Part shown: in pieces, positions 4,171-25,029 of the stretch
Layout of the letters: each line of letters starts with the position of its first letter
Position numbering within the stretch: the stretch's first letter is position 1
Source of the DNA: an uncultured Actinomycetes bacterium
Lineage (GTDB): Bacteria; Actinomycetota; Thermoleophilia; UBA2241
Length of the DNA stretch: 64,000 nt
NCBI GenBank assembly: GCA_963733255.1
Contig: CAVTCH010000019.1
Location: 452,328 to 516,327, forward strand
Reading direction: 5' to 3'
Translations under genes and position numbers: made by a program
Notes under the pieces: model-generated
What the model was told of the DNA's origin: nothing
What the model saw: the letters and a program-made list of their open reading frames with translations, nothing else
The model's database searches: none

Positions 4171-4173
4171 TCG

Positions 4174-9037: not shown

Positions 9038-9050
9038 GCGCCGGCATCGG

Positions 9051-9090: not shown

Positions 9091-9101
9091 CGACGCGTGC
9101 G

Positions 9102-9353
9102 ATGGACGACGCAAAGGCAGCCATCGTGGCCAGCCGTCTCGACGAGGGAAGCGCCCGTGAGGCGCTGCAGCGGCTGATCGCGGCGCTGCTCGAAGTAGAA
9201 GACCGCTACCGCTTCTTGCTCAGCCAGGACATCCTGCGGACCTCACACCAGGACGACGGCGCGCTCGAGGAGCGCCTGGGGCGGCCGATACGACGACTCT
9301 TCGAGCGCGGCAGAGCTGCCGGCGAGTTCTCGCGCTCGCTCAGAGCCGACTGA
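9102..9353 (+). pseudogene. Possible remnant of a TetR-family regulator (C-terminal ligand-domain-like fragment only, no HTH)
   Basis: 83-aa ORF starts immediately after a terminator hairpin. Resembles TetR C-terminal helices but lacks an N-terminal DNA-binding domain. Confidence 0.25.
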
Positions 9354-9427
9354 ATGATGGCCGCCCTGGGCGCCGTGCTCGTGGCCGTTGCCGTCGAGAT
9401 CGCGCCCTGAGCGGGTGCCCTGGAAAG

Positions 9428-9465
9428 GCTGAGATTCGCGGCGCGACCGCGCCGCGAATCTCAGC
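9428..9465. terminator. Palindrome GCTGAGATTCGCGGCGCG..CGCGCCGCGAATCTCAGC at the 3' end of fmdB copy 1
   Basis: Seen directly. Overlaps the stop of the minus-strand gene. Confidence 0.5.
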
Positions 9466-9466
9466 C

Positions 9467-9667
9467 TCAGCCGAACGGACTGCCCGTCGGCGCGCCGCAC
9501 CCGGAGCTCGACCCGGAGCTGCCACTCAGAAAGCTCGAGAACTTCTGGTGTACGTTGCGCGAGCCGCACTTGGGGCATTCCTCCTGCTCGGCCCTGATGA
9601 AGCCGATCGAGAACACCTCGAAGGCGTGATCGCAATCCGCACACACGAAATCGTAAAGTGCCACCAT
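9467..9667 (-). CDS. FmdB-family zinc-ribbon protein (CxxC...CPKCGS), copy 1
   Basis: MVALYDFVCADCDHAFEV...CPKCGSRNVHQKFS... followed by a Gly/Ser-rich tail. Confidence 0.8.
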   Translation of the reverse strand: MVALYDFVCADCDHAFEVFSIGFIRAEQEECPKCGSRNVHQKFSSFLSGSSGSSSGCGAPTGSPFG

Positions 9668-12240: not shown

Positions 12241-12768
12241 TCAGTCGGTGCGACCCCCGGAGCCGCCGCGACGAGCGCGGCAGCCGGGCGGGCTGCCTTG
12301 GCCGGACGGGCTGCCCTGCGCGCAGCGTCCGCGACCGCCGCCGCGCCCGCAGCGAGGGCCGCCGCGCCAGCAGACACCGACGTCGGCAGACCCACACTTC
12401 GGGCACGACGACGCGCGGCTGCTCTCTTCGTCGGCGGTCCACAGCTCCTGGCACGAAAAGCAGCGCCACTGCCGCGGCTCGACGCGATACTGCCCGCCGC
12501 CGATCACGATGGCCTTGCCGCCGACCAGGGCCTCGGCGACCTTGGCCCGGCCGCGCTCGAGCACCCGGCCCACCGTCTGCCGCGAGACGCCCATGGCCGC
12601 GGCCGCCTCCTCGTGACTAAGCCCGTCGAGGTCGACCAGGCGGATGGCTTCGAGCTCGTCGACGGCGAGCGGGAGCTGGTCGAGCTCTCGAGCCGGCACG
12701 CCGGCCGGCTTGAACAGTGTGACTCGCGGGACACCGCCAACGGCGCGCTCAATCGGAGGTCGCGCCAC
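12241..12768 (-). CDS. DUF134 (UPF0251) predicted DNA-binding protein with Cys-rich C-terminal extension
   Basis: TLFKPAGVPARELDQLPLAVDELEAIRLVDLDGLSHEEAAAAMGVSRQTVGRVLERGRAKVAEALVGGKAIVI matches the DUF134 sigma-70-region-4-like core. GTG start. Confidence 0.75.
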   Translation of the reverse strand: MARPPIERAVGGVPRVTLFKPAGVPARELDQLPLAVDELEAIRLVDLDGLSHEEAAAAMGVSRQTVGRVLERGRAKVAEALVGGKAIVIGGGQYRVEPRQWRCFSCQELWTADEESSRASSCPKCGSADVGVCWRGGPRCGRGGGRGRCAQGSPSGQGSPPGCRARRGGSGGRTD

Positions 12769-12875
12769 GGCCCGCTCCAGGAGTTAGTAGCATATGCCCA
12801 TTATAACGACCGGTCCGTCGGCCTTCAAGCGGGCGTTCTCAGGCCGGTCCGTCGCGCCCCTCAAGCCGGCCGGGG

Positions 12876-13397
12876 CTACCGGCCGTACGCCGCCCGGTAG
12901 CGATCGCAGAGCTCGACGTAGGTCTGTTTGAAGACCCGCCAGGCCGCCTTGAACTCGTCGTCGACGGGGCGGTCGAGGAGGCGCGCCGGCACACCCGCGG
13001 CGATGGCCGCCGGCGGCACGACGGCGCGCTGCGGCACGACCGCCCCTTCGGCTACGACCGCCCACTCGCCGACGTCGGCCCAGTCGCTTACGACTGCTCC
13101 CATGCCGATGACCGCGTAGTCGGCCAGGGACGCGTTGTGCACGACGCAGCCGTGACCGAGCGTCACCCACGAACCGATCGTGCAGATCTCGCCGGGGCGA
13201 GCGTGCACCACGCAGTTGTCTTCGATCGCAGAGCAGTCACCCACCACGATCCGTCCATAGTCGCCGCGCAGGCGCGCGCCCGGACCGATCCAGCAGCGAT
13301 CGCCAACGGTCACGTCACCCAGCACATCCGCCGAGGGATGCACCCAGGTCCCTTCGCCCAAGCGGGGGCTCCTGCCCTCAAAGGGAGCCAGGCTCAC
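12876..13397 (-). CDS. Gamma-carbonic-anhydrase-like / hexapeptide-repeat (PaaY/YrdA family) protein
   Basis: Left-handed beta-helix hexapeptide repeats (VGDRCWIGPGARLRGD..., IEDNCVVH..., IGSWVTLGHGCVVH). GTG start overlaps the upstream stop. Confidence 0.85.
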   Translation of the reverse strand: MSLAPFEGRSPRLGEGTWVHPSADVLGDVTVGDRCWIGPGARLRGDYGRIVVGDCSAIEDNCVVHARPGEICTIGSWVTLGHGCVVHNASLADYAVIGMGAVVSDWADVGEWAVVAEGAVVPQRAVVPPAAIAAGVPARLLDRPVDDEFKAAWRVFKQTYVELCDRYRAAYGR

Positions 13398-14143
13398 GAC
13401 CGGCTCACGCCCGACTTCAGGCTCGGGTCAAAGAAGTCGCAGCGCTCTCGGGCGCACTGCGCGTTGCGCGCCGGGTAGCCGCAGCGCACGCCATCATCCG
13501 CCGGCAAGTCGATCGCGAGATGGTCGTGCAGGTAATCGACGGCCGCCCGCACTGCGACTCGCGACGCCCGCTTACAGCAGCGCGGCTCCCCGTCGACCAT
13601 GCGGGCCAGCGCGTGGGCGGTCGCGCCCAGGGCGAGCGAGCGCTGTTCTCCCTTCAGTGGGCTCGCACCCGTGAGAGCGCTGACCGCGACCCCGACGCCG
13701 ACGGCGGCGCCACAGGCGCCGTAGTAGCCACACCACCCGCCCGGCACCTTGGCGGCCCGTTTCAGGGCCCCCTCAAGGCATCCGTCGGGGATCGCGACAC
13801 CGGCGTTGCGGACCGCGGCGATGATCACGCCCGGGACTATGGCGTGGTGCTCGGGACCGTGCATGGGCAACCCCGGATGGGCCATCACCTGTTCGAGGAT
13901 CGCCGCCGGGTCGGCGAGCGTCGTGGTGGTCAGCACGTGCCGTACGGCCTCCATCGCCGTCCTGCCGTGACAGGCGTCGCACACGAAATGTCCCGCGGGG
14001 CAGTAGATGAGCGTCGCCTGCTCCGCGCCGCACAGGTCGCAGACGCGCTCGACAGGATCGGTGGCATAGACCAGGGCCTTGCCGCACACGCCGCAGTCCG
14101 TCATCGATGCCATGTGCTCGGACGTCATCGTGTCGTCGATCAC
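13394..14143 (-). CDS. Cys-rich metal-binding protein of unknown function (possibly DUF5714-like)
   Basis: N-terminal CxxC pairs (DCGVCGK, CDLCGAE, CDACHG), central GPEHHAIVPGVIIAAV and GGWCGYYGACGAA, C-terminal Cys cluster. Family call is tentative. Confidence 0.4.
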   Translation of the reverse strand: MIDDTMTSEHMASMTDCGVCGKALVYATDPVERVCDLCGAEQATLIYCPAGHFVCDACHGRTAMEAVRHVLTTTTLADPAAILEQVMAHPGLPMHGPEHHAIVPGVIIAAVRNAGVAIPDGCLEGALKRAAKVPGGWCGYYGACGAAVGVGVAVSALTGASPLKGEQRSLALGATAHALARMVDGEPRCCKRASRVAVRAAVDYLHDHLAIDLPADDGVRCGYPARNAQCARERCDFFDPSLKSGVSRS

Positions 14144-14209: not shown

Positions 14210-14620
14210 CTAGAGCACCTGCACGACGTCGGCATCCTCGCAACGCGAGATGTACTCGGCGATGCCGACGATGTCGTCGACCAGGTCGACGAAGTCGTCG
14301 AGCGCGCCGGCGCCCCAGATCTTGCCGGCCGTGCCGCAGCAATGGATGCGGACCTTGCCGTCGACCTTGAGCTTGCGCAAGCTGTCGAGGGGCGCCGGCA
14401 CCGCGTTGCCGGCCATGCCGGCGGCCATCTCCTGGGCCAGCTCGGGGCGGTCGCTGTAAGTGCCGTTGCCGGCCACGTCCTTGCGAAAGGCGTAAGCGCC
14501 GCCGAGCAGCAGGTAGATGTCGACGTCCATGTCGAGAGCCACGGCGCCGCCCGTGACCGTGCTGGTGACGACGAGCTTCTCGAGACTGCCGCTCGCCAGA
14601 CCGATGACCATAGAGCTCAT
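14210..14620 (-). CDS. DsrE/DsrF-like family protein (small, 136 aa)
   Basis: DsrE-fold pattern (IGLASGSLEKLVVTSTV..., VRIHCCGTAGKIWGAG). Purine-rich RBS. Confidence 0.5.
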   Translation of the reverse strand: MSSMVIGLASGSLEKLVVTSTVTGGAVALDMDVDIYLLLGGAYAFRKDVAGNGTYSDRPELAQEMAAGMAGNAVPAPLDSLRKLKVDGKVRIHCCGTAGKIWGAGALDDFVDLVDDIVGIAEYISRCEDADVVQVL

Positions 14621-14681
14621 GGTGTCCCCCTCTGCCTCAGGTGGATGGGTCGCCGCCCGCACTCGCGGTCGTTGAACGCCG

Positions 14682-15212
14682 CTAGATGAACAGATTCACG
14701 TTGGCTTCGTCGGCCTCGCCGAGGTAGGTCGCCACTCCGGCGAACTCGAGCCCGTCGATGAGCTCCTCCTCCTTGAACCCGAGGATGTCCATCGAGAGCG
14801 TGCAGGCGATGAACTTCACGCCCTGCTCCCTGGCGGTGTCGACCAGCTCCTCGAGCGACATGGCGTTGGCCTTCTTCATGACCTGCTTCATGAGCGGCGC
14901 GCCGGCGCCGGCGAAGTTCATCTTGGACAGCCCGAGGTGACGCGTGCCCTTGGGCATCATCTTGCCGAACATGGCCTGCAGGGCGCTCTTTTTGTCGGTC
15001 GTCTGCACCTTCTCGGGCTTACGCAGGATGTTCAGACCCCAGAACGTGAAGAACATGGTGACGTCGTCGCCCATCGCCGCGGCGCCGTTGGCGATGATGA
15101 AGGCGGCCATGACGCGGTCGAAGTCGCCGCTGAACAGGATGATCGTCTTCTTGGTGGTCGTCGCGGGAGCGCTCTCCTCGCTCTCCACGATGGCTTGAGT
15201 CTGTTCGTCCAT
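14682..15212 (-). CDS. DsrE/DsrF-like family protein (COG2044-type, 176 aa)
   Basis: KKTIILFSGDFDRVMAAFIIANGAAAMGDDVTMFFTFWGL...KFIACTLSMDILG... typical of DsrE-family sulfur-relay proteins with a conserved Cys. AAGGGGGA RBS. Confidence 0.6.
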   Translation of the reverse strand: MDEQTQAIVESEESAPATTTKKTIILFSGDFDRVMAAFIIANGAAAMGDDVTMFFTFWGLNILRKPEKVQTTDKKSALQAMFGKMMPKGTRHLGLSKMNFAGAGAPLMKQVMKKANAMSLEELVDTAREQGVKFIACTLSMDILGFKEEELIDGLEFAGVATYLGEADEANVNLFI

Positions 15213-15223
15213 GTCGTCCCCCT

Positions 15224-16201
15224 TCAGGCTACGTAGGCTTCGCGGAGATACTGCGAGATGTCGGTGAAGCGCATCGTGTCGCCGGCCGCGGTGCTCAGGT
15301 TCACGAAGCACATCGGGCACATGGTGACGCAGTCGGGGGCCACGTCGCGTAGCTGGGCCACGCGCTTGGCGGCGTTGGCCGCCGCCTTGGCCGGGTAGAG
15401 CGATTCGATCGGGCCGCCGCAGCACCAGGTCTGACGGCCCGCGTTCTCGGGGTCGCGTACGGTGAGGCCCGCGGCCGCGAGCAGCTCACGCGGTTCGTCC
15501 ACCATGCTCTCGTACCGGGCGAAGACGCACGAGTCGTGCATCACCACCTCACCGGAGCGCCCGGCCGCACCGTTCCCGCTCGCGACGAGCCCCTTCTCGG
15601 CCAGGACTTCGAGGTAGCTGCGGACCTCTACGTCGTAGCCCTGGAGGATCTTCGGATAGACACTGCGCAGCATGGTCGTGGTGTGCGGGTCGATCGTGAT
15701 GACCTGCTTCACGCCGTGCTTTCTGAAGACGGCCTGTACGCGGCGGGCATGGGCGGCCACGACCTCGTCGGCGCCCAGGTCGTAGGCCAGAGCGCCCGAG
15801 TAAAGGTCGTCCTCGTAGAGCGCGCCGAAGGCGACTCCGGCCTTGCGCAGCAGATGGACGACGTTGATCGGGACCTGGTCGTACTGGGCGCGCTCCTGCG
15901 CCGAGGGCCGCGCCATGAAGGCCGAGATGTTCACCAGGCGATTGACCCGGCGCCCGACGCCGGTCAGGCCGGCCAGCCACGAGTCGCCCAGCCGCTGCTC
16001 GGCCTTCACGAGCCCCTCGATGTAGGGGATGAGCTGGTACATCATGCCGGTGTAGAGGACGGTCTCGCCGCCGCGCGGCAACCCAAGGCCCTCGGTCCAC
16101 TTGGTCGAGACTCTGGCGGACAGCGGCAGCACCGACTTACGCAGGCGCAGGTTGTCGGCCAAAATACCGATGACGTCGCCGGTCGGTAGGGGCATGGTCA
16201 T
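15224..16201 (-). CDS. hdrB: Heterodisulfide reductase subunit B-like (HdrB; single C-terminal CCG domain)
   Basis: C-terminal DSC..x33..WCCGGP..x34..CVTMCPMC is a CCG cysteine-rich domain. The N-terminal half has no Cys. AGGAGGA RBS. Confidence 0.8.
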   Translation of the reverse strand: MTMPLPTGDVIGILADNLRLRKSVLPLSARVSTKWTEGLGLPRGGETVLYTGMMYQLIPYIEGLVKAEQRLGDSWLAGLTGVGRRVNRLVNISAFMARPSAQERAQYDQVPINVVHLLRKAGVAFGALYEDDLYSGALAYDLGADEVVAAHARRVQAVFRKHGVKQVITIDPHTTTMLRSVYPKILQGYDVEVRSYLEVLAEKGLVASGNGAAGRSGEVVMHDSCVFARYESMVDEPRELLAAAGLTVRDPENAGRQTWCCGGPIESLYPAKAAANAAKRVAQLRDVAPDCVTMCPMCFVNLSTAAGDTMRFTDISQYLREAYVA

Positions 16202-16207
16202 CTCCTC

Positions 16208-16513
16208 CTAGAGTCCGAAGACGGTACGGTCGATGTGGTGGCGCAGCGTGCGCACGTTTTCGGCGATGTGCACGCCCGACGGACAGTTCTCCTCGCACAT
16301 CTTGCACAGCAGGCACGAGAAGACCGTCTCGGTCTCGGCGCGCACGCGGTCCTCCATGCCCAGGAGCACGTAGCGAAACAGCTTGCGGGGCTGCACCTCG
16401 ACCCCCATCGGGCAGATCGCCGAGCACACGCCGCAGTTCATGCAGGCGTCGGCGTTGAATCCGTCCGCGCGGTCGAGCTCGGCCGCCAGTGCGGGGTTCA
16501 CGAGAACCGTCAT
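16208..16513 (-). CDS. hdrC: Heterodisulfide reductase subunit C-like (HdrC; 2x[4Fe-4S])
   Basis: CMNCGVCSAICPMG and CLLCKMCEENCPSG ferredoxin motifs. ATG overlaps the upstream stop (ATGA). Confidence 0.8.
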   Translation of the reverse strand: MTVLVNPALAAELDRADGFNADACMNCGVCSAICPMGVEVQPRKLFRYVLLGMEDRVRAETETVFSCLLCKMCEENCPSGVHIAENVRTLRHHIDRTVFGL

Positions 16514-16809
16514 GAGCCCTCCCTGGCGATGATCTGATACCGGAAGTAGCCCTCGTCGGTGACTTCCTTGATCTCGGCCAGCCAGCCGTACTTGCGCAGG
16601 CCCATGACCCAGAACATCACCTCGTGGGACGGACGTTCGACGGCCGCCGCGATCTCAGGCACCGTGAGGGGCCCCTCAGCGAGCGCCGCCAGGATGCGGC
16701 GCCGCATCACCTGTTCGTCGCGCACGATCTCGCGCACGTCGCGGTTGCCGGGGGACGCCTCTCTGACGGTCGTGCCGCCGGCGCCGTGGTTGTCGTGTGC
16801 CGGCGTCAT
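16510..16809 (-). CDS. Small conserved hypothetical protein between hdrA and hdrC (winged-helix-like, ~99 aa)
   Basis: C-terminal 99 aa of the long listed ORF (MTPAHDNHG...RRRILAALAEGPLTVPEIAAAVERPSHEVMFWVMGLRKYGWLAEIKEV...). Translationally coupled on both sides (ATGA overlaps). Confidence 0.5.
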   Translation of the reverse strand: MTPAHDNHGAGGTTVREASPGNRDVREIVRDEQVMRRRILAALAEGPLTVPEIAAAVERPSHEVMFWVMGLRKYGWLAEIKEVTDEGYFRYQIIAREGS

Positions 16810-18545
16810 GAGCAGCTCACCTCCAGGAGGCCGTCGATCATGGCCTTGATCTGGGCGTCGGTGTAGCCCTGCAGGTCGATCGCTTCGGTGGGACACACCG
16901 GCACGCAGCCGCCGCAGCCCTTGCAGGCCGTGCGGATGACACCGGCGACCGCCTTGCCGTCGGCCTCGACCTGCTCGAGGGCATCGTAGGGGCAGGCTTC
17001 CACGCACTTGCCGCACCAGGTGCAGGCGTCCGTATCGACCAGCGCCACCATCGGGTCGAGCTCGGCGAAGCCGCGCTTCAGGATGGCGCCGCTTTGCGTG
17101 ACGGCCGCGAGGCCGCTGGCCACCGCTTCGGCCGAGTTCTTGGGCGACTGGCAGGCGCCGCAGATGTAGACGCCGTCGACGACCGTCTCGACGGGGCGCA
17201 GCTTGGGATGGATCTCGTTGAAGAAGCCGTCGTTGCCGACGGGCAGCTTGAGCACGCTGACCAGCTCGCCGTTCTCGCGCGACACCATGCCGGTGACGAG
17301 CACCACGAGGTCGGCCGGGATGGACACCTCTTCGCCGCCGGTGAGCAGGTCGCGAGTGGTGACTTCGAGCCCGCCGGTGACGAGATTCCTCACCGCCGGC
17401 GGCTCGTCGTCGGGCACGCGCAGGTAGACCGAGCCCTTCTCGCGCGACTCGCTCCACAGCAGCTCGTACTTGCCGTAGGTGCGCATGTCACGGTAGAGGT
17501 GGTACTGGCGCAGCGCCGGGTCGCCCTTGGCGGCCGCTTCGAGCGCCGCATGCACGGCGGCCGTGCAACAGTAGCGCGAACAGTACGGGTGCCCGCCCTC
17601 GACGTCTTCGCCCTGACGGCTGCCGACGCAGTAGACGTAGGCGATCGTCTTGACCGGCCGGCCGTTGTACTGCAGCGGCCCGTCCGCCTGGTCGAGCATC
17701 TGCTTGAACTCGGGAAGGGTGACGACTCCCTCCACGCCGTAGCCGAACTCGCCGGCCGCGGGCTCGTAGGTGTCGAAGCCGGTGGCCACGACGACGGAGC
17801 CGACCTCTACTTGGATGGTCTCGAGCTTCTCGCCCTGGATGGCTATCGTCATCTGGTAGTTGCCGAAGCTGCCGCTCTTCCCCATCACCTCGGCATCGGT
17901 GAACACGGTGACGGCCGGATGGCTGCGCACCTTCGCTTCGAGGCCGGCCACCAGGTCGGCGCCATCGCGGCCGTGCGGGTACATCTCACCGAAGCCGGCG
18001 ACCCAGCCGCCGAGCCGTGGCTCCTTCTCTACGAGAAAGACGGAGAGCCCGATCTCGGCCAGCCCGAGGGCCGCCCGCAGACCGGCGATGCCGCCGCCCA
18101 CGACGAGGCTCCTGGGAGTCGTCTCTACGACGATCGGTTCGAGGGGCTCGGTCAGACGCGTGCGGTTGATGCCGGCGCGCACCAGGCGCACCGCCTTCTC
18201 GGTCGCACCTTCGTGGTCGTCGGTGTGCGTCCACGAGCACTGCTCGCGCACGTTCACCTGCGTGTACTGGAAGGGGTTCATACCGGCGCGCCTGGCCACG
18301 TCACGGAAGGTGACCGTGTGCAACTTGGGCGAGCACGAGGCCACGACGAGCGCGTCGAGGCCCTTCTCGTGGGCGTCCTGCACGATCTCCTGCTGGGTCG
18401 CGTCGGAGCAGGTGAACATTGCCGTGCGGGCGACCACGACGTCGGCGTCGTGCTCGACCGCGGCGACCACCTGCTCGACGTCGACGTAGTCGCTGATGTT
18501 GCCGCCGCACTGGCAGACGTACACGCCGATCTTGCGGCCGCTCAT
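16806..18545 (-). CDS. hdrA: Heterodisulfide reductase subunit A (HdrA, full-length methanogen-type)
   Basis: N-terminal HdrA-specific Cys domain KIGVYVCQCGGNISDYVD...FTCSD...ASCSP, FAD site VVGGGIAGLRAALGLAEIG, C-terminal CVGSRQ...CSRYCC and 2x[4Fe-4S] (CTWCGKCVEACP, CKGCGGCVPVCP). Confidence 0.85.
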   Translation of the reverse strand: MSGRKIGVYVCQCGGNISDYVDVEQVVAAVEHDADVVVARTAMFTCSDATQQEIVQDAHEKGLDALVVASCSPKLHTVTFRDVARRAGMNPFQYTQVNVREQCSWTHTDDHEGATEKAVRLVRAGINRTRLTEPLEPIVVETTPRSLVVGGGIAGLRAALGLAEIGLSVFLVEKEPRLGGWVAGFGEMYPHGRDGADLVAGLEAKVRSHPAVTVFTDAEVMGKSGSFGNYQMTIAIQGEKLETIQVEVGSVVVATGFDTYEPAAGEFGYGVEGVVTLPEFKQMLDQADGPLQYNGRPVKTIAYVYCVGSRQGEDVEGGHPYCSRYCCTAAVHAALEAAAKGDPALRQYHLYRDMRTYGKYELLWSESREKGSVYLRVPDDEPPAVRNLVTGGLEVTTRDLLTGGEEVSIPADLVVLVTGMVSRENGELVSVLKLPVGNDGFFNEIHPKLRPVETVVDGVYICGACQSPKNSAEAVASGLAAVTQSGAILKRGFAELDPMVALVDTDACTWCGKCVEACPYDALEQVEADGKAVAGVIRTACKGCGGCVPVCPTEAIDLQGYTDAQIKAMIDGLLEVSCS

Positions 18546-21259
18546 GCCTGCACCTTCACTTTCGCTCCGTCGGCTACCTTTGCCCTCTCGAGGTGGGCGG
18601 CGGCCTGGGCCACCGCGGCGCCCGCGTGGAGGATGGAATCGGGGATATCCTTGGCGCCGGCCGCCGCCCCGGCGACAAAGACGCCCGGCAGGTTGGTCCG
18701 GCCGGGATCCAGGTCTTCGTCGGCCTCGCCGACGTAGTAGTAGTCGTCGAGTGCGAGAGCGCCGTCTTCGAACAGGGCCGGCGCCTCGCCGTTGGGCTGC
18801 ACGCCGACGGCCAGCACGACGAGGTCGTGTTCGGCCTCGGCCGGTTCGCCGCCGTTCTCGATGTCCTCGTACCGCAGCACGAGGTTGCCCTCACCGGTCT
18901 CGGTGATGCCCGAGACGCGGCCTTTGACGAAGTTGGCGCCCATGTCCTTGGCCTGCTGGTAGAACTCGTCGTAGCCCTTCCCCACCGAACGCACGTCGAT
19001 GTAGTAGACAGTCACGTCGGCAAGCGGCAGGGCGCCCATGATGAGCTGGTTCTGCTTGACCGAGTACATGCAGCAGATCTTGGAGCACAGCGGGTTGCCG
19101 ACGGTGTCGTCGCGCGAGCCGGTGCACATGACGTAGGCGATGTTGTCGGGCACCTTGCCGTCGCTGGGCCGCAGCACGGCGTTGTAGGGCCGGGTCGGCG
19201 CCAGAAGGCGGTCCATCTGCATGCCGGTGATGACGTTCTTGTAACGCCCGTAGCCGTACTGTGGCTTGGCGTCGGCGGCAAAGAGCCCGAAGCCGGTGGC
19301 CAGCACGACCGCGCCGACCTCGACGTCGATCTCGCGGCCGCGATCGTCGAGCTTGATGGCGTCGGCCGGACAGGCGTCGACGCAGGCGTGACACTCCGAG
19401 CAGACGCCGCAGTCGAGACAGCGAGCCGCGCCCAGGAACGCCTCGTCTTCGCTCAACGGGCCCTCGGTCTCGCTGAAGTCGGTGGGCGCCGCGCTCATGG
19501 CGGCGCTCGACTCGAACGGCTCGCGACGATCGTACGAGTCCTGCCTGGCAAGCACCTCGGCCTTGTCGACCACCGGCAGCGCCTCGTCGAAGGCGTCGGC
19601 GTCGAGCTCCGCGCCCTGGAGATAGCGGTCGATCATGAAGGCGGCGCGGCGACCCTGACCGACGGCGGTCGTGATCATGGTCGGGCCGGTGACGACGTCG
19701 CCGGCGGCGAACACCTGCGGCACGCTGGTCTGCAGCGTCGCCTCGTCGGCCTTGAGCGTGTGATTGCCGTTGGTCTCGAGGCCGAACGCGTCCGTGTCGG
19801 CGCCCATGCCCGCGGCCACGATGACCACGTCGCACTCCAGACTCTGGCGCTGTGTCTCGTCGTACTCGGGGTGGAAGCGCCCGGCGGGATCGAACACACA
19901 GGTGCAGACCTTGAGCTCGGCGCCCTGCACGCGGCCGTCGCCGGTGAAGTGATCGATGCCCCAGCCGTCGTGCAGCGTGATGCCTTCGGCCTGAGCCTCT
20001 TCGACTTCGAAGTCGTGGGCCGGCATCTCCTCGCAGCACTCGAGGCTGACCTGGTCGACCGAAGCGGCCGCGAGACGGCGCGCGGTGCGCGCCGCGTCGA
20101 TGGCGACGTTACCGCCGCCGACCACCAGGACGCGCTTGCCGGAGAGCTCGACGGGCTCGCCGAGCTTGACGGCTCGCAGGAACGCCAGCGCACTCTGCAC
20201 GCCGGCGAGCTCTTCGCCGGGCACCCGCAGGCCCACCGACTTGTGCGTGCCGGTAGCCAGCAGCACAGCGTCGAAGCCGTCGTTTGCGAGCGCCGTCGCG
20301 TTCTCGACACGCACGCCGGTGGCGATCTCGACTCCGATCGCCGTGACGTTGGCGACGTCGTGGTCGACGACCTCGTTGGGCAGCCGGTACGCGGGGATGG
20401 CGAGGCTCAGCATGCCGCCCGGCTTGGGCGCCGCCTCGAAGATCTTGACGCCGTAGCCGCGGCGCGCGAGCTGCCAGGCGGCGGTGAGGCCGGCCGGACC
20501 CGACCCGACGACGGCGACCTTCTTGCCGTTGGGCTCGGGCTGTGCCGGGGCCTGCGGCTCGGCCTGGCCGTAGCGCCGGTCCGCGATGAAACGCTTGAGA
20601 CGACGGATCGGCAGTGGACCTTCGATCTCGCCGCGCGTGCACTCGTCCTCGCAGGGCGCATAGCAGGCGCGCCCGAGGCTGCCTACCAGCGGTGTGGTCT
20701 CCAGCACCAGGTCGAACGCCTGGTCGTATTCGCCGCTGCGCACCCGTGCCACGTAACCGTGCGCCTTGATGCCGGCCGGGCAGTTGTAGGTGCAGGGCGA
20801 GACGCCGGCGCGGTCGATGACCGCCTTCTTGGGCACCGCCTGCGGAAACGCGATATATGCCGCCCGTCGCGACACCATGTCGGCGTTGAACTCGTCGGGC
20901 ACGGCCACGTTGCAGGCCATCTCGCACAGGCGGCAGCCGGTACAGGCGGCCTCGTCTATGAACTTGGGCTTCTGGCGGACGGTGGCGTGGTAGCCGCCGT
21001 TGCCGTCGCCGCGGATGCCGTCGACCTCGGCGTAGGTGAGCACATCGATGTTGGGATGGTGGATGGTGGCGGCCATCTTGGGGGTGGAGATGCAGCTCGC
21101 GCAGTCGAGTGTCGGAAACACCTTGCTGAGCAGGATCATCTTGCCGCCGACGCTGGCCTGCTTTTCGACGACGAGCACCTTGTAGCCCATGTCGCCCAGC
21201 TTGAGCGCCGACTCCATCCCCCCGATGCCGCTGCCGACCACCAGAGCGTCGTACTTCAT
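18542..21259 (-). CDS. HdrA-like / glutamate-synthase-small-subunit (GltD-like NAD(P)H) fusion protein (HdrL-like, 905 aa)
   Basis: N-terminal FAD site plus FPTLDCASCI (HdrA signature) and ferredoxin insert. Middle SPCTYNCPAGI, GKKVAVVGSGPAGLTAAWQLARRGYGVKIFE, AAGD (GltD-like). C-terminal HdrA half (CTGSRDD, CSKICC). Confidence 0.8.
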   Translation of the reverse strand: MKYDALVVGSGIGGMESALKLGDMGYKVLVVEKQASVGGKMILLSKVFPTLDCASCISTPKMAATIHHPNIDVLTYAEVDGIRGDGNGGYHATVRQKPKFIDEAACTGCRLCEMACNVAVPDEFNADMVSRRAAYIAFPQAVPKKAVIDRAGVSPCTYNCPAGIKAHGYVARVRSGEYDQAFDLVLETTPLVGSLGRACYAPCEDECTRGEIEGPLPIRRLKRFIADRRYGQAEPQAPAQPEPNGKKVAVVGSGPAGLTAAWQLARRGYGVKIFEAAPKPGGMLSLAIPAYRLPNEVVDHDVANVTAIGVEIATGVRVENATALANDGFDAVLLATGTHKSVGLRVPGEELAGVQSALAFLRAVKLGEPVELSGKRVLVVGGGNVAIDAARTARRLAAASVDQVSLECCEEMPAHDFEVEEAQAEGITLHDGWGIDHFTGDGRVQGAELKVCTCVFDPAGRFHPEYDETQRQSLECDVVIVAAGMGADTDAFGLETNGNHTLKADEATLQTSVPQVFAAGDVVTGPTMITTAVGQGRRAAFMIDRYLQGAELDADAFDEALPVVDKAEVLARQDSYDRREPFESSAAMSAAPTDFSETEGPLSEDEAFLGAARCLDCGVCSECHACVDACPADAIKLDDRGREIDVEVGAVVLATGFGLFAADAKPQYGYGRYKNVITGMQMDRLLAPTRPYNAVLRPSDGKVPDNIAYVMCTGSRDDTVGNPLCSKICCMYSVKQNQLIMGALPLADVTVYYIDVRSVGKGYDEFYQQAKDMGANFVKGRVSGITETGEGNLVLRYEDIENGGEPAEAEHDLVVLAVGVQPNGEAPALFEDGALALDDYYYVGEADEDLDPGRTNLPGVFVAGAAAGAKDIPDSILHAGAAVAQAAAHLERAKVADGAKVKVQA

Positions 21260-21696
21260 GCTGCCGATGCCTTTCGGGAGGGGCCGAGCTTGGTCAGGGA
21301 CGCGGAGAACTCGTGCATGTAGTTGGTAAAGGGCTCGGCACAGACCGAGCAGATGGCCGCCATGCGCAGCCGCTGGGGCTCATAGCCGTGGTCCACGAGC
21401 AACGCCTGAGCGTCGGCCATGATCTGTGAGGTGCGCTCGCTGCAGTCGGACAGGTAGGCGCATTCGTCGCCGTCAGCGGCCACGAAGACGCCGTCGAAGC
21501 CCTGCTGGATCGCGTAGAGCGCCCAGCTCGGCTTGATGCCGCTCGTGCAGGGCACGCTGATCACCATGACGTTGGGCGAGTAGTGCATGTGCGAGCTGCC
21601 GGCCAGATCGATGCCCGGGTCGGAGATGTTGTTGGTCGAAAGCACAAGGATGCGCGGCTCGAAGCCCTGCTCGTCGCGTGACTGCAGATCCGCCAT
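21256..21696 (-). CDS. mvhD: MvhD/FlpD-like hydrogenase delta-subunit family protein
   Basis: VISVPCTSG...GFDGVFVAADGDECAYLSDCSE aligns to the MvhD core. The N-terminal CCxxC motif is replaced by LSTNNIS. Confidence 0.7.
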   Translation of the reverse strand: MADLQSRDEQGFEPRILVLSTNNISDPGIDLAGSSHMHYSPNVMVISVPCTSGIKPSWALYAIQQGFDGVFVAADGDECAYLSDCSERTSQIMADAQALLVDHGYEPQRLRMAAICSVCAEPFTNYMHEFSASLTKLGPSRKASAA

Positions 21697-21698
21697 CA

Positions 21699-21950
21699 CT
21701 ACTTCATCTTCTTGACGTACAACTTCATGAAGCTGGGCTCCTCGACCACGCCGAGAAACTCATGGCCCATCTTCTTGCACCAGGCGGGAAGGTCTTTCTG
21801 GGTGCCGGTGTCAGTCGCCTGGACCTCCATGACGCCGCCCACCGAGACACTCGGGATGCCCTTCTTGGCGGCCAGGATGGGGCCCGGGCACGACGTGCCT
21901 CGCGCGTCCACGACCTTCTCTACCTGGATGGTGCTGAGGTCTTCTGACAT
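21699..21950 (-). CDS. tusA: TusA-like sulfur carrier protein
   Basis: VDARGTSCPGPILAAKKG...EVQATDTGTQKDLPAWCKKMGHEF with the CPxP motif. AAGGAGAGGA RBS. Confidence 0.75.
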   Translation of the reverse strand: MSEDLSTIQVEKVVDARGTSCPGPILAAKKGIPSVSVGGVMEVQATDTGTQKDLPAWCKKMGHEFLGVVEEPSFMKLYVKKMK

Positions 21951-22093
21951 GGTCCTCTCCTTCACGATGGTGGGGCCTGAGGCCCGGTCCTGCTGCTTGT
22001 GTTTGTGAACTCTTTCGCAAGGAACGGCGTGCAAGGGCGTCGTTCGCTCCTGCGATGGGCTGTGATCTATCCCCTGGCTCGCTTGCCGGTGTT

Positions 22094-22540
22094 CTAGGCC
22101 GACGCCACCGTGGCGACCGGCTCTGAAGGCTGTGCCGAAGCTGCCGGCGTCTCGGCTGCCGGTGACGGCGCCGCGTCGAGCCGCTCGGCGGCCTGCAGCG
22201 ACTCGCCCTGCGCCTGATGCTGTTCCACCAGCGCCTGGCGGATCAGGGCGCACGCCTGCAGGAACTTCTGATTGGTGACGTGGTAGTAGACCGTCTGGGC
22301 CGCTTTGCGCGACGCGACGAGCCGACGCTCTTTGAGCACGCGCAGATGCTGCGACACGTTGTGCACAGAGATGCCGATCTCAATCGCCAGATCGCCGACG
22401 CACTTCTCGCCGTCGCCGAGTGCGTGCAGAAGTGCCTGGCGATGCTCGTTGGCGAGCGCCTTGCAGAGCTCGGCGTGCATGCGAAAGAGAGGCTCGAGGT
22501 CGGTTGTGGGGGTGTCTGTGATGTTGTCCGTTATTTGCAT
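22094..22540 (-). CDS. ArsR-family transcriptional regulator (sHdrR-like position upstream of the hdr array)
   Basis: LANEHRQALLHALGDGEKCVGDLAIEIGISVHNVSQHLRVLKERRLV is an ArsR wHTH. Co-directional, immediately upstream of tusA. Confidence 0.8.
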   Translation of the reverse strand: MQITDNITDTPTTDLEPLFRMHAELCKALANEHRQALLHALGDGEKCVGDLAIEIGISVHNVSQHLRVLKERRLVASRKAAQTVYYHVTNQKFLQACALIRQALVEQHQAQGESLQAAERLDAAPSPAAETPAASAQPSEPVATVASA

Positions 22541-22723
22541 ACTTGCTTATATACTACAACGCAGCGACGAGCGTCAAGCGCTCGTAGGCCCGCACCGACG
22601 GCCTTACCCGCGGGCAGGACTACCGGTCGTGCCCCGCCCGGTAGCGCTCGCGGGAGCGGGTCGAACGAGCGCACCGTGACCTTCGCGGTATCATCGATAG
22701 ACCCCAACGAACGAGGAGCGTGC

Positions 22724-23038
22724 ATGGCTGAGGCAAGGATCGAGAGCGGTGTCTGCGGCATGACGACCACCGTGCGGACCACGAGCGCAGGGCGCAGCGT
22801 CCGCGTCGAGTTCGAAAGCGACTGCGGCTACGTGCAGGCCCTGGCGGAGGCGCTGAGCGAGGTCGACCCGTTCCGAGAGATCAGCTACCGCGGCGAGGGT
22901 CCCCTCACCCTGCGCCTCGCGGCGGAGCACCTCGTGCACCCGGCCTGTCCGGTGCCGGCGGGCACGATCAAGGCTATCGAGGTAGCGGCGGGGCTGGCGC
23001 TGCCCAAGGACGCACACATTCGACCCAGCAAGGACTGA
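22724..23038 (+). CDS. Hypothetical protein (104 aa)
   Basis: ATG 22724 with GAGGAG RBS. No recognisable domain. Confidence 0.4.
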   Translation: MAEARIESGVCGMTTTVRTTSAGRSVRVEFESDCGYVQALAEALSEVDPFREISYRGEGPLTLRLAAEHLVHPACPVPAGTIKAIEVAAGLALPKDAHIRPSKD

Positions 23039-23044
23039 CACCGT

Positions 23045-23080
23045 CAGGGGGCGGGAGTGCTTTCGCACTCCCGCCCCCTG
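23045..23080. terminator. Perfect 16-bp-stem palindrome (CAGGGGGCGGGAGTGC-tttc-GCACTCCCGCCCCCTG), bidirectional terminator
   Basis: Seen directly between convergent genes. Confidence 0.6.
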
Positions 23081-23135
23081 GTCTTCTTCTCAGTCGCCGG
23101 TCTTCCGCTCCGCCGGCGCACCTCGGTCGCCGTCT

Positions 23136-24809
23136 CTACGCCGCCGGCATACCTTCGAGCGCCGGTTCTCCGGCCGGCTCACAGGTCCCGAGTACCTCGT
23201 CGCACGGCTCCGGGCGACCCTTGTGCCGCGCGGAGCTGAGCCGTAGCGACCCGGTCCAGGTGGTGACCAGCGCCACCAGGAAGCCGGCGAAGATCACGCC
23301 GCTGGCGACCGCCAGACCCACGGAGAAGCCGTGCGTCAGCGCGGTGGCCAGGACGTGTGGCGACAGGCCTCCGCCCGCGCCGGAGGCCGCCGCATTGCCG
23401 GCCTGCGCCGCGGCCCCGCCGGCGGCGTGCGCCGCGGCCGCCGCGGCCGCTGTCTGCGACTTGACACTGCCGGCGACTGCCGTCCAGGCGATCGTGCCGA
23501 TCGCCGCCAGGCCGATCGAGCCGCCGATCTGCTGCCCGACGTTGAACAGGCCCGATGCCGCACCGGCCTCGTCGTCTCTGAGGTGCGAGACCACCATCAG
23601 GGTCATCGGCACGAACAGCAGGCCCATGCCGAGGCTGACCAGAAGTTGACCCGGCAGCAGGTTCACGAGGTAGCTGCCGTGCGGGTCGAGCCGCGACAGG
23701 TACAGAAAGCCGGCGCTCGCCAGGAGTGGACCGGCCAGCACCAGCGGCCGCACGCCCACCCGCACGACGAGCACGCGAGCCACCAGCGTGCTGACGATGA
23801 TGATCACGATCGGGAAGGGCAGCCAGGCCAGCCCTGCCTTGATCGGGCTGTAGCCCCAGATCGTCTGCACGTAGAGGGTCAGAAAGAAGAACACGGCGAA
23901 CAGCGCCGTGCCGAGCAGCAGCGAGATCACGTAGGCGCCCGAGCGCCGGCGCGACCTGAGCAGGTGCAGCGGCAGCTCGGGGTGGCTGCTGCGCAGCTCG
24001 ATGGCCACAAACGAGACGAGCAGCAGCGCGGCGGCGGTGAGCGAGGCGATCGTCTGGAACTGACCCCAGTGCGACACGCCGTTGCTGCCCGCGGCCGCGT
24101 GCGTCAGGCCGTAGACCAGCAGCGCAAGGCCCGCCGTGCTCGTGATCACGCCGGGGATGTCGAGGCGACTCTTGAGCCGGACCGACGACACGAGGGCGAT
24201 CGGCGCCAGGACGAGGACCGCGATGCCGATCGGCACATTGACGAAGAGCACCCACCGCCACGACACGTAGGTGGTGAGGATCCCGCCCAGCAGCAGTCCT
24301 ATGGCGCCGCCCGCGCCGCTCATACCGGCATAGACGCCGAGGGCGCGGGTACGCGGGGGTCCCATGGGAAAGGTGGTGGCGATCAGGGCCAGGGCGGTCG
24401 GTGCGATCAGCGCGGCGCCCGAGCCCTGCAGCACGCGAGCAGAGAGCAGCCACCACTGGGTGGTGGCGAAGCCGCCCAGCAGCGACCCGACCGAGAAGAC
24501 GGCGATCCCGACGATGAAGATGCGCCGCCGCCCGTAGATGTCGCCCAGCCGTCCGCCCAGCAGCAGCAGGCTGCCGAACGAGAGCGCATAGGCGGTGACG
24601 ATCCATTCAAGGCCAGCGCCGCTGAAACCCAGTGAGCGCTGGATGTGGGGCAAGGCGACGTTCACTATCGTCGCGTCGAGCACGATCATCAACTGCGCCG
24701 TGGCGATCACGAAGAGCGCGAGGCCAAGGTGGCGCGGCACGTTCTTGGCCGGCTGCGGGGGCGGCGCGGGCGACGAGGCCGCCGCGGCCACGTGTGTCTG
24801 TGAAGCCAT
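23136..24809 (-). CDS. MFS transporter, DHA2-family-like 14-TMS drug/H+ antiporter
   Basis: LDATIVNVALPHIQRSLGF...GRLGDIYGRRRIF with many TM segments. GGAGGGAGA RBS. Confidence 0.85.
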   Translation of the reverse strand: MASQTHVAAAASSPAPPPQPAKNVPRHLGLALFVIATAQLMIVLDATIVNVALPHIQRSLGFSGAGLEWIVTAYALSFGSLLLLGGRLGDIYGRRRIFIVGIAVFSVGSLLGGFATTQWWLLSARVLQGSGAALIAPTALALIATTFPMGPPRTRALGVYAGMSGAGGAIGLLLGGILTTYVSWRWVLFVNVPIGIAVLVLAPIALVSSVRLKSRLDIPGVITSTAGLALLVYGLTHAAAGSNGVSHWGQFQTIASLTAAALLLVSFVAIELRSSHPELPLHLLRSRRRSGAYVISLLLGTALFAVFFFLTLYVQTIWGYSPIKAGLAWLPFPIVIIIVSTLVARVLVVRVGVRPLVLAGPLLASAGFLYLSRLDPHGSYLVNLLPGQLLVSLGMGLLFVPMTLMVVSHLRDDEAGAASGLFNVGQQIGGSIGLAAIGTIAWTAVAGSVKSQTAAAAAAAHAAGGAAAQAGNAAASGAGGGLSPHVLATALTHGFSVGLAVASGVIFAGFLVALVTTWTGSLRLSSARHKGRPEPCDEVLGTCEPAGEPALEGMPAA

Positions 24810-24881
24810 GTGGGTCTCCCTCCACACTCGAGCCGGACGGCGGACGGACGAACCCCCTCGTCGTCCGGGATAAGTGGACCA

Positions 24882-24895
24882 AATCAGTCCTGATT
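24882..24895. promoter_or_regulatory. Inverted repeat AATCAG-TC-CTGATT upstream of the MFS gene (candidate operator)
   Basis: Seen directly, about 75 bp upstream of the start. Confidence 0.25.
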
Positions 24896-25029
24896 GTCCT
24901 ACCGCAGGATGACGCGGGCGAAACCCCATCTGCGGCCGTACGATGTCGCGCGCCGGCGGGGGACTTGCCTGGCTAGGTGTGGCTGAGGTCGCTCGACGAG
25001 AGGCGCGAGCCTGACGAGCCTCGCGAGCT

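Follow-up and report, generated by a model that had tools for sequence, protein, structure and literature searches.

What might an operon do that joins heterodisulfide reductase (Hdr)-type flavoproteins, one of them carrying an NAD(P)H module, with the sulfur carriers TusA and DsrE? The question is raised by a 64,000-nucleotide (nt) stretch of contig CAVTCH010000019.1 (GenBank assembly GCA_963733255.1, positions 452,328 to 516,327) from an uncultured Actinomycetes bacterium of the Thermoleophilia (UBA2241), hereafter called the window, in which ten consecutive genes run in the same direction on the minus strand from position 22540 to 14210. An initial annotation, made from the sequence alone, had listed these ten genes and read them as a hybrid of the sHdr systems of sulfur oxidisers and of Flx/Mvh-type modules. 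Pfam and NCBIfam profile searches of the window proteins bore out the inventory, with all ten genes at the coordinates first assigned to them, but the hybrid gave way to another reading, in which the locus would encode an oxidoreductase of Hdr/Qmo type, soluble and with several flavins and iron-sulfur clusters, together with sulfur-carrier partners and a repressor. A soluble complex of HdrA and its paralogue HdrL would link NAD(P)H with the chemistry of persulfides or disulfides on TusA/DsrE2, most likely in the reductive direction, and to this explanation we give about an even chance of being right. The ten genes are:

22094..22540, minus strand: ArsR/SmtB-family regulator, first gene, 148 amino acids (aa); HTH_5 1e-10, NF033788 6e-22
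21699..21950, minus strand: TusA, 83 aa; PF01206 4e-19, 68.8 bits, CPGP motif
21256..21699, minus strand: MvhD/FlpD-type [2Fe-2S] electron-transfer subunit, 147 aa; PF02662 4e-29
18542..21259, minus strand: HdrL, HdrA/GltD fusion, 905 aa; HdrA halves around Fer4_20 and Pyr_redox_2
16806..18545, minus strand: HdrA, 579 aa; HdrA2 model 467 bits
16510..16809, minus strand: hyp, cysteine-free predicted winged-helix protein, 99 aa; helix-turn-helix matches below threshold, AlphaFold2 (AF2) model
16208..16513, minus strand: short HdrC-like 2x[4Fe-4S] ferredoxin, 101 aa; Fer4_17/Fer4_8, 2x CxxCxxCxxxCP
15224..16201, minus strand: HdrB-like CCG protein, 325 aa; one PF02754 domain at 219-302, 1e-11
14682..15212, minus strand: DsrE2-type sulfur carrier, 176 aa; DrsE_2 (PF13686) 6e-64, 215 bits
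14210..14620, minus strand: second, divergent DsrE-family protein, 136 aa; Pfam DrsE_2 5e-3, hhalign

The genes are packed in the manner of an operon, as had been proposed from their overlaps. There are five overlapping junctions, of 1 nt between the TusA and MvhD genes and of the ATGA type at MvhD/HdrL, HdrL/HdrA, HdrA/hyp and hyp/HdrC, and the gaps past the HdrC gene are short (6, 11 and 61 nt), a sequence of Shine-Dalgarno type being present in all three. The gap from arsR to tusA measures 143 nt, and tusA has its own strong GGAGAGG ribosome-binding site. A promoter-like element, TTGACG-18 nt-TATATA (22541-22590, minus strand), lies about 7-9 nt 5' of the arsR ATG, a spacing which suggests that the arsR transcript is leaderless. 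The search for operator inverted repeats 5' of arsR and tusA gave weak GC-rich palindromes only, and an Rfam scan of the whole window gave no match.

The arrangement recurs far beyond the window. In the GTDB one-genome-per-species contigs 94 places hold a relative, of which 80 were compared by tblastn with all window proteins (these loci are cited below by number, such as L003). The seven-gene core TusA-MvhD-HdrL-HdrA-hyp-HdrC-HdrB is syntenic in 62 of the 80 species-level genomes, from at least four phyla, and this shared order is far beyond chance. Of the other 18 loci, 12 end at contig ends, four miss the coverage filter only, and two differ (L042 and L080, the latter from Nitrospirales). 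For the CCG protein, 1,576 protein-database clusters were found at E<=1e-3, the best 120 of them being 78-100% identical, and its orthologues are 55-92% identical across phyla. When the flanking open reading frames (ORFs) of the 80 loci were clustered, no other conserved neighbour was found, the best non-module family occurring in 11 of them.

The carriers comprise Thermoleophilia/Gaiellales, Acidimicrobiia and other Actinomycetota metagenome-assembled genomes (MAGs), Dormibacterota, Chloroflexota and Bacillota of the Desulfotomaculum group. Cultured carriers include Desulfotruncus arcticus DSM 17038, D. alcoholivorax DSM 16058, Desulfoscipio geothermicus DSM 3669, Desulfotomaculum copahuensis and Desulfallas sp. 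Many MAGs are unlabelled; the habitats found in those record titles that give one are peat (palsa, bog, fen, SPRUCE) and lake sediment, and some isolate labels suggest anaerobic digesters. By their record titles the carriers come largely from anoxic habitats or are strict anaerobes, and they include no known sulfur oxidisers. The genome had at first been called aerobic-looking; nothing in the window supports this, and the relatives are from peat, lake sediment and strict anaerobes.

The proposed link to TusA and DsrE held well, since genes of both families are recurrent partners of the core in three independent layouts. Layout A, that of the window, is ArsR-TusA-core-DsrE2(-DsrE). In layout B a divergent ArsR gene is followed by DsrE2-TusA-DsrE-TusA-core, and five loci of this layout (L039, at 190-1602, and four others) have a class-V aminotransferase gene (cysteine-desulfurase-like, PF00266) just upstream. 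The third layout is the archaeal DsrE2-TusA-MvhD-HdrA'-HdrA-hyp-QmoC, as in L085, from an Archaeoglobales MAG, which reads DsrE2-TusA-MvhD-HdrA'(434 aa)-HdrA(645 aa)-hyp-QmoC-like (2568-8465). Two further relatives are L083, of another lineage, with HdrA'(459 aa)-hyp-QmoC-like (6607-9503), and L086, with TusA-MvhD-HdrA'(436 aa)-HdrA(641 aa)-hyp-HdrC-HdrB; L085 and L086 have no NAD(P)H insert. The QmoC-like proteins of these relatives match the qmoC model over its whole length with 174-188 bits (cut-off 300), the expected membrane domain being present. The membrane variants of L083 and L085, in which an HdrC domain is joined to a multi-helix membrane domain, would represent a Qmo-like complex with TusA linkage and do not lie beside apr genes.

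Two Thermoleophilia loci carry a second, divergent module a few kilobases (kb) away on the opposite strand (L003, 12831-19336, and L005, 13636-18800, both minus). This paralogous cluster has the order ArsR-TusA-MvhD-fused HdrA'-HdrA (1133 aa, no GltD insert)-hyp-HdrC-like, and because in L003 a single protein unites both HdrA paralogues, a heterodimer of HdrA and HdrL is supported for the window as well. In L082, an 89%-identical relative, two large genes for HdrA-like/FAD (flavin adenine dinucleotide)-oxidoreductase and ferredoxin proteins (602 and >662 aa, 18569-20975) lie 8 kb downstream of the module, which indicates that these Actinomycetota hold several Hdr-type systems. Judged from gene content, the constant part of the family consists of MvhD, the winged-helix protein, two different flavoproteins of HdrA type and a ferredoxin domain of HdrC type, with TusA/DsrE attached. 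What varies is whether the NAD(P)H insert is present and how the complex ends, with a single-CCG HdrB that is soluble or with a QmoC domain in the membrane.

At the protein level, the domain and cofactor motifs are intact and conserved in 50-79 orthologues, and the genes are translationally coupled. HdrA was initially described as a full-length methanogen-type protein. The type was upheld by its 390.7 bits to methanogen HdrA (5odc_A) against 108.4 bits to sHdrA (6tjr_A), but full-length it is not. The match to 5odc_A (1.4e-115) falls in two stretches, with residues 240-574 of the query on 313-650, while residues 1-231 of the HdrA2 model lie on residues 5-235 of the query, and the inserted 2x[4Fe-4S] ferredoxin domain (~237-312 of 5ODC HdrA) is missing. 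The parts that are kept are the N-terminal Cys domain (CQCGGNI), the FAD domain, the HA4-type CX15CX3CC site and the C-terminal 2x[4Fe-4S] domain; conserved cysteines are found at the N-terminal, HA4-type and C-terminal cluster sites only. The FPTLDCxxC motif is replaced by a variable YPHGRDG, whereas HdrL retains it.

HdrL consists of the thioredoxin-reductase-like flavin domain of HdrA without the N- and C-terminal HdrA domains, and with an insert (~150-610) that forms a GltD/NfnB-like NAD(P)H-FAD-2x[4Fe-4S] module. The insert splits the 'inserted ferredoxin' domain, between the cluster motifs C106-C116 and C614-C630. Its PDB matches are 9bov, 9n5u (NfnA), 8oh5, 4ylf and 5jca, with NfnB/Stn/GltD structures nearest (E 1e-43 to 1e-91), and the HdrA parts of HdrL match 9sfi/8rvu/5odc. 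Compared with NfnAB, Stn and GltD themselves, the NfnB-type module here (E 1e-53 to 1e-91 to modules of that type) is internal to an HdrA paralogue and has no NfnA-type partner. The FPTLDCxSC motif and the HA4-type cysteines C712/725/729/730 are conserved, and 62 orthologues show conservation of both dinucleotide motifs, GSGPAG and GGGNVAxDxAR. As this is the only NAD(P)H-type module of the locus, the earlier proposal that HdrL is the NAD(P)H port fares well, and that of MvhD as the likely wire is supported too. MvhD has five conserved cysteines, and among the NCBIfam models it is matched best by the MvhD domain at the C-terminus of HdrA2; HdrA2 is in fact the best profile for HdrA, HdrL and MvhD alike, though with scores far under the equivalog cut-offs (467 against 1100 bits).

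The two subunits at the other end of the path had been named HdrC and HdrB. The 2x CxxCxxCxxxCP motif of the HdrC-like protein stands, and its eight cysteines are invariant, but the protein, at 101 aa, has about half the length of the methanogen HdrC models (profile lengths 144-198), it reaches 48 bits on TIGR03290 against a cut-off of 160, and it matches the qmoC N-terminus as well. In the other protein the CCG domain is confirmed and the name HdrB overstated, since it has one CCG motif only. Its conserved cysteines are C225, C260, C261, C295 and C298 alone (79 sequences), which are the ligands predicted for one noncubane [4Fe-4S] cluster. The match to methanogen HdrB (8rvv_B) has E=0.09, and the best PDB match is 9ojn, an 'iron-sulfur-binding reductase'. 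The N-terminal half (residues ~1-205; given as 15224-15830) is cysteine-free and as conserved as the cluster-binding half, with DLYSGxLxYDLG (including YDLG) and TxDPHTT invariant, as are residues D141, D171 and H173. Alignment of the two halves by hhalign was not significant, with the N-half motifs weakly level with the CCG/CPxC positions; as a guess, the N-terminal half could be a degenerate CCG domain with a different Asp/His site.

The small protein between HdrA and HdrC probably is a dedicated partner of this HdrA type, as subunit or adaptor. The 291 relatives found by a profile search of 1.84 billion representatives make a small family, and in every context examined the gene lies directly 3' of an HdrA-type gene and 5' of HdrC or QmoC. 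Clean in-frame fusions of the HdrA C-terminus with hyp occur in two of the relatives, P0357 and P0362. The protein has no cysteine and an acidic core (pI 5.4), and its AF2 model (predicted local distance difference test score, pLDDT, 78) has three helices and a beta hairpin in a winged-helix arrangement, for which Foldseek returned only generic ArsR/MarR winged helices at E>=2.5e-3. In a single case (P0302) a Cys-less TusA-like domain is fused to hyp. Other apparent fusions, with HdrC or with long tails (P0264, P0279, P0294, P0316, P0318 and P0342), were rejected as wrong-frame readings of overlapping high-GC genes; the long Arg/Pro/Ala-rich stretches of these public metagenome gene calls would mislead Rosetta-stone arguments.

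Both carriers have the sites expected of their families. TusA has the fold and the Cys-Pro-x-Pro site, with the active-site C21 conserved in all of 50 orthologues and DARGxxCPGP conserved at 90-100%, and it scores below the equivalog cut-off for E. coli TusA (50 against 78 bits). DsrE2 has the DrsE_2/DsrE fold and an active-site cysteine, C137, conserved in 98%; its PDB matches are 3pnx (2e-36) and 2qs7, described as DsrE2B (9e-18), and with 95 bits on NF047629 (equivalog cut-off 210) it is no equivalog of the Allochromatium DsrE2. The second DsrE-like gene is present in ~11-14 loci only. Its product aligns with DsrE2 by hhalign at 91% probability (E 9.5e-7), Cys95 falling on DsrE2 Cys137, and this profile-profile comparison confirms it, by predicted homology, as a divergent DsrE-family member.

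Regulators beside the module belong to two families, ArsR in Actinomycetota and CsoR in Bacillota, that both include persulfide sensors. The ArsR protein had been likened to sHdrR, which is true of the gene's position but not of its cysteines. The sulfane-sulfur-sensing ArsR subfamily (SqrR/BigR/HlyU/YgaV/SoxR/sHdrR) has two conserved cysteines, Cys50/Cys116 in sHdrR, whereas in the window protein C26 and C97 are invariant and C47 is conserved in 88% (25 orthologues). In HlyU alignments the first canonical Cys corresponds to H39 and the second to about V105, this last position being extrapolated past the printed alignment. The nearest structures are HlyU, SmtB, NolR, BigR and SqrR, all with differently placed cysteines, and the NF033788 match remains under the BigR/TsoR equivalog cut-offs (BigR model 44 bits, cut-off 155). 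A thiol switch at non-canonical positions is plausible on these residues. Bacillota loci have, in place of ArsR, a divergent CsoR-family gene with two conserved cysteines. This CsoR-family protein (PF02583; L061, 3662-4000, minus strand, and also L063, L064, L067, L068, L074 and L059) carries the cysteines in DCRDCGD and LACH motifs, a pattern unlike that of Cu-CsoR (C-H-C) and, in the Desulfotomaculum-group proteins, presumably unlike that of CstR too.

Taken together, a path for the electrons can be proposed, the analogy being to Nfn and to the methanogen Hdr structure that is reportedly that of Wagner et al. 2017. HdrA and HdrL would form a heterodimer, like the methanogen HdrA homodimer or QmoA/QmoB. 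NAD(P)H would reduce the NfnB-like FAD of HdrL, from which the module's two clusters and the split inserted-ferredoxin clusters would lead to the HdrL flavin; MvhD, with its [2Fe-2S] cluster, and the C- and N-terminal clusters of HdrA would join the HdrL half to the HdrA flavin. From there electrons would pass over the HA4-type cluster of HdrA to the two cubane clusters of HdrC and on to the CCG subunit, at whose one noncubane cluster thiol or sulfane-sulfur chemistry would take place as in the single-CCG enzyme DsrK. The whole complex would be expected to contain 3 FAD, 1 [2Fe-2S], about 11 cubane and 1 noncubane [4Fe-4S] clusters. The hyp protein would be a structural or docking subunit. The substrate would be sulfur bound to TusA/DsrE2, in the form of a persulfide on cysteine or of a bridge TusA-S(n)-DsrE2, in effect a 'heterodisulfide' made of proteins, and its NAD(P)H-driven reduction would release sulfide and regenerate the carriers, possibly with ferredoxin as a third partner (bifurcation). 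Such a system could serve oxygen-free persulfide or polysulfide turnover or detoxification, and its expression would probably be under a thiol-containing ArsR repressor. We favour the reductive direction because the carriers are largely anaerobes, because the locus has no C1B1 pair, the proposed catalytic unit of the oxidative system, and because the repressor families resemble those over persulfide-detoxifying operons.

Several observations weigh against this explanation. The AF2 model of the CCG subunit, with a pLDDT of 52.8, is too poor for active-site inspection. L085 keeps TusA/DsrE2 with a QmoC-like subunit in place of HdrC-HdrB, and since it has no CCG protein, TusA linkage does not depend on a CCG site; the TusA site may sit elsewhere, for example on a flavin subunit or on MvhD. 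The fold of hyp is a DNA-binding one, and the protein could be a second regulator instead of a subunit; the ArsR cysteines, for their part, lie off the canonical sulfane-sulfur-sensor positions. Persulfide/sulfide couples are of low potential, which makes NAD(P)H-driven bifurcation to ferredoxin thermodynamically doubtful, and it is doubtful here all the more because the ferredoxin-exit domain has been lost from HdrA and persulfide is a poor high-potential acceptor.

In regards to known systems, the locus architecture appears, from gene content, closest to Qmo and to the soluble QmoAB-HdrCB/HdrAACB complexes of Gram-positive sulfate reducers and some sulfur oxidisers (PMC6397845; PMC10504309). 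Shared with them are two distinct HdrA-type flavoproteins (here HdrL and HdrA), an MvhD-type module and an HdrC-type ferredoxin; as in Qmo, the terminal unit is either an HdrB or a membrane cytochrome-b-like domain, relatives of the window module ending in a QmoC-like protein. Unlike Qmo, MvhD is a separate protein, one HdrA paralogue has the GltD/NfnB insert, there is an extra winged-helix subunit, and the TusA/DsrE linkage is constant. It is this family, of two HdrA paralogues with MvhD and the winged-helix protein, Qmo-like and with QmoC-ending relatives, that replaces the sHdr-Flx/Mvh hybrid, against which the methanogen-type HdrA and the absence of HdrC1B1, etfAB/emo and FlxABC all count. 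The locus likewise resembles methanogen HdrABC and the HdrA2B2C2 of Methanosarcina in the domain order of HdrA, the HA4-type CX12-15CX3CC site, MvhD and the 2x[4Fe-4S] HdrC. It differs from methanogen HdrABC in that HdrA, lacking the inserted ferredoxin domain, falls short of six clusters, that HdrB has one CCG motif instead of two, and that HdrC is half-size; no hydrogenase genes were found in the window flanks or among the conserved neighbours.

The relation to sHdr deserves a closer look, as it underlies an alternative which we consider unlikely, namely that the locus is an oxidative, lipoate-independent counterpart of sHdr in which sulfane sulfur on TusA/DsrE2 is oxidised and the electrons go to NAD(P)+ via HdrL. 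The exit would then be HdrL in place of LbpA-lipoate and dihydrolipoyl dehydrogenase, a substitution that is equally unlikely in our view, even though a built-in NAD(P) module could stand in for lbpA. In agreement with what had been noted before, neither a match to lbpA (GCV_H/lipoyl family) nor lipoate-maturation genes, which accompany type I sHdr loci, were found among the ~60 window ORFs scanned with Pfam, some short ORFs being outside the scan. The locus is like sHdr in that tusA/dsrE-family genes flank the hdr cluster, a small ORF lies between hdrA and hdrC, and an ArsR-type gene adjoins; its hdrA-hyp-hdrC-hdrB with these flanks mirrors the order rhd-tusA-dsrE-hdrC1B1-hdrA-orf2-hdrC2-hdrB2 of sulfur oxidisers (PMC2754497). 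Two sHdr types are defined, type I by shdrC1B1AHC2B2 with lbpA and type II by shdrC1B1AHB3-etfAB-emo; the sHdrB3 of the latter has a single noncubane cluster, a reduced cluster content in which the window HdrB resembles it. In type I sHdrA is short (about 340 aa, FAD and one [4Fe-4S]), and sHdrC1B1, encoded upstream of shdrA and with two noncubane clusters, is the proposed catalytic unit. The window, in contrast, has no HdrC1B1 pair; in it and in the 62 related loci a single HdrC and HdrB both lie 3' of hdrA, with mvhD and hdrL 5' of it, and HdrA, at 579 aa, belongs with the long methanogen proteins (391 bits to methanogen HdrA, 108 bits to sHdrA 6TJR). No Etf/EMO-type genes are present in the window flanks, and HdrC and HdrB are separate genes, contrary to what type II would have. 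Membership in sHdr was consequently rejected on gene content (no C1B1, lbpA or etf/emo) and on the type of HdrA. MvhD and HdrL are further differences from sHdr. The carriers, which are no sulfur oxidisers but sulfate reducers and MAGs of mainly anoxic origin, also speak against an oxidative role, and unless a further partner drives the reaction, electron transfer from sulfane sulfur to NAD(P)+ does not look clearly favourable. A tblastn search with HdrA for an sHdr locus in 72,556 plasmids matched Ilyobacter and Picosynechococcus only, and the sHdr entries of the PDB are of sHdrA only.

Similarly improbable is a reading that leaves TusA/DsrE2 as loose helpers and makes the complex a bifurcating NAD(P)H dehydrogenase of the Flx-Hdr type, acting on DsrC or a low-molecular-weight disulfide together with ferredoxin. 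A pyridine-nucleotide entry module, an MvhD-like wire and HdrABC-like proteins are indeed shared with Flx-Hdr, and the NfnB-like module is generally known as a bifurcating flavin site, but FlxABC, which in the FlxABCD-HdrABC of Desulfovibrio comprises the NAD(P)H-binding flavoprotein FlxA and the iron-sulfur subunits FlxB and FlxC, is missing and the NAD(P)H site is inside the HdrA paralogue HdrL. The composition of HdrL, HdrA, MvhD, HdrB and HdrC is also that of Dred_1325-30 of Desulfotomaculum reducens (HdrC, HdrB, large NADH-domain HdrA, HdrA, MvhD), which is up more than 20-fold on sulfate and for which transfer of NADH electrons to DsrC by bifurcation has been proposed (PMC4759654). The likeness in these five protein types is drawn from the published description, not from orthology, and Dred_1325-30 as described differs in having a formate dehydrogenase gene, another gene order and no TusA/DsrE/hyp. 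In Desulfobacterium autotrophicum, HdrL is an HdrA/glutamate-synthase fusion co-located with mvhD, in one locus as tandem hdrL/hdrA, and the HdrL/mvhD pairs are proposed as NADH entry points (Strittmatter et al. 2009; PMC2702500). Compared by description, the window protein is an HdrL in this same sense, with the same fusion idea and mvhD adjacency, whereas the D. autotrophicum hdrL loci have dsrABC/formate dehydrogenase links and selenocysteine, and tusA/dsrE/hyp are not described for them. What speaks against a loose association is that tusA is translationally coupled to mvhD and that TusA/DsrE are the sole constant partners in all layouts; furthermore, no dsrC, dsrAB or apr was found in the window or the examined 20-kb flanks, the ferredoxin-exit (inserted) domain is missing from HdrA, and there is one noncubane cluster where methanogen HdrB (5ODC) uses two for heterodisulfide reduction.

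It seems quite improbable that the module serves biosynthetic sulfur mobilisation in anaerobes, with a TusA persulfide destined for Fe-S clusters, molybdenum cofactor and tRNA thiolation; that this persulfide derives from sulfide or a cysteine desulfurase, the Hdr-like core giving or taking two electrons, we rate just as low. TusA is generally known as a hub for molybdenum cofactor and tRNA thiolation, and sporadic neighbours of the module fit such a role (Mrp/NUBPL ParA, Nitro_FeMo-Co, DUF1847, MoaE, TrmO, DUF134, DUF5714 and class-V aminotransferase). Each of these cofactor-related neighbours, however, occurs in <=11/80 loci, an eight-subunit, three-flavin machine would be excessive for sulfur mobilisation, and control by a repressor points to a function that is induced on demand and not to housekeeping. 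It is very improbable that this is a soluble Qmo-type complex feeding APS reductase, or some different enzyme of dissimilatory sulfur metabolism, whose genes lie elsewhere: two HdrA paralogues, an MvhD module, HdrC and HdrB do make up QmoAB-HdrCB/HdrAACB (PMC6397845; PMC10504309) and distant relatives do end in a QmoC-like subunit (174-188 bits, full model length), but no apr or sat genes (aprBA/sat) were found in the window flanks, in the surroundings of the Desulfotruncus arcticus module (L061), which does not lie beside apr, sat or dsr, or among the conserved neighbours of the 80 loci, Desulfotomaculum-type sulfate reducers have a separate, apr-linked qmoAB-hdrCB (PMC10504309), and both the NAD(P)H insert and the TusA/DsrE linkage are foreign to Qmo.

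Downstream of the ten genes lie two more on the same strand:

13394..14143, minus strand: DUF5714 Cys-rich protein; PF18978 4e-55
12876..13397, minus strand: hexapeptide-repeat (left-handed beta-helix) protein; PF00132 3e-18

The DUF5714 gene starts 66 nt past the second DsrE-like gene and overlaps the hexapeptide-repeat gene by 4 nt (ATGA-type), and in a simple scan the sole coding-strand terminator-like site from arsR to the hexapeptide gene was at 13461-13438, within the DUF5714 gene. The operon may extend into both genes, in this lineage only: DUF5714 is 3' of the module only in the close relatives L001, L013 and L020, and in nine other loci a hexapeptide-repeat homologue lies upstream on the opposite strand. 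A DUF134 gene follows the hexapeptide gene behind a promoter-like site (12828-12800), the whole set spanning 12241-14143 on the minus strand. DUF5714 and DUF134 belong to a recurring 'anaerobe Fe-S' neighbour set, with Nitro_FeMo-Co (PF02579), Mrp/NUBPL ParA with Fer4, DUF5320 and DUF1847, members of which are seen near related modules in L082 (12593-12985), L083 (6152-12408), L007 (11594-12544) and L077 (16832-17518). On the other side, divergent from arsR, there is a DUF6951 gene (22727-23038, plus strand; 103 aa, several cysteines), and a perfect 18-bp GC-rich hairpin (23043-23082) ends both this gene and a convergent MFS transporter gene (23136-24929, minus strand).

The remaining genes of the window are housekeeping genes, transporters, a cupredoxin and a ferritin. 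One 644-aa ORF (35250-37184, minus strand) combines an NhaA-type Na+/H+ antiporter (PF06965) with a C-terminal DsbA/thioredoxin-like domain. A sulfite-oxidase-family molybdopterin domain protein (PF00174, 61761-62882) lies directly 5' of ABC transporter genes for a binding protein (SBP_bac_11) and a permease (59751-62882 in all, minus strand); apart from the operon, 40 kb away, it is the one locus of the window with a possible relation to sulfur or molybdenum.

The components of the module, and several of their combinations, are already known. What appears to be new is the conserved translational coupling of TusA to MvhD-HdrL-HdrA-hyp-HdrC-single-CCG HdrB with DsrE2 attached, and likewise the kinship to QmoC-ending and insert-free variants; full-text literature searches gave no description of either, in keeping with the initial impression that the arrangement was uncharacterised, although an earlier mention in comparative review tables is possible. 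We tentatively suggest, as an idea that we hold to be somewhat doubtful, an unrecognised, ancient TusA-coupled family built on a heterodimer of HdrA paralogues with MvhD and the winged-helix protein 'H', an anaerobic, reductive sister of sHdr with the A-H-C-B core, of which the window would hold the founding example. The same tentative scheme would have three forms, namely soluble and NAD(P)H-linked (the window), soluble without the insert, and membrane-bound with a QmoC ending. The window form, we would propose with no more confidence, would be the first enzyme in which NAD(P)H, possibly with bifurcation or confurcation, reduces a persulfide held on a protein or the 'protein heterodisulfide' TusA-S(n)-DsrE2.

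Flavin-based electron bifurcation and the sulfur energy metabolism of the cytoplasm are built mainly from Hdr-type modules, of which few combinations have been characterised (Mvh-Hdr, HdrA2B2C2, Flx-Hdr, Qmo and sHdr). Set against these, only the module of the window would wire a built-in NAD(P)H port to a TusA/DsrE relay. Its variant series, with or without the GltD insert and ending in HdrCB or in QmoC, offers a natural experiment on the relations of Qmo, sHdr and methanogen Hdr, and because several carriers exist as pure cultures, the function of the module is directly testable. At least 62 species-level genomes carry the module, among them those of uncultured Actinomycetota, Dormibacterota and Chloroflexota that abound in soil and peat. 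If our reading is true, the module would explain the turnover of protein-bound sulfane sulfur in anaerobes that have no oxygen-dependent persulfide dioxygenases, and it would link their pyridine-nucleotide pool to the sulfur cycling of wetland soils.

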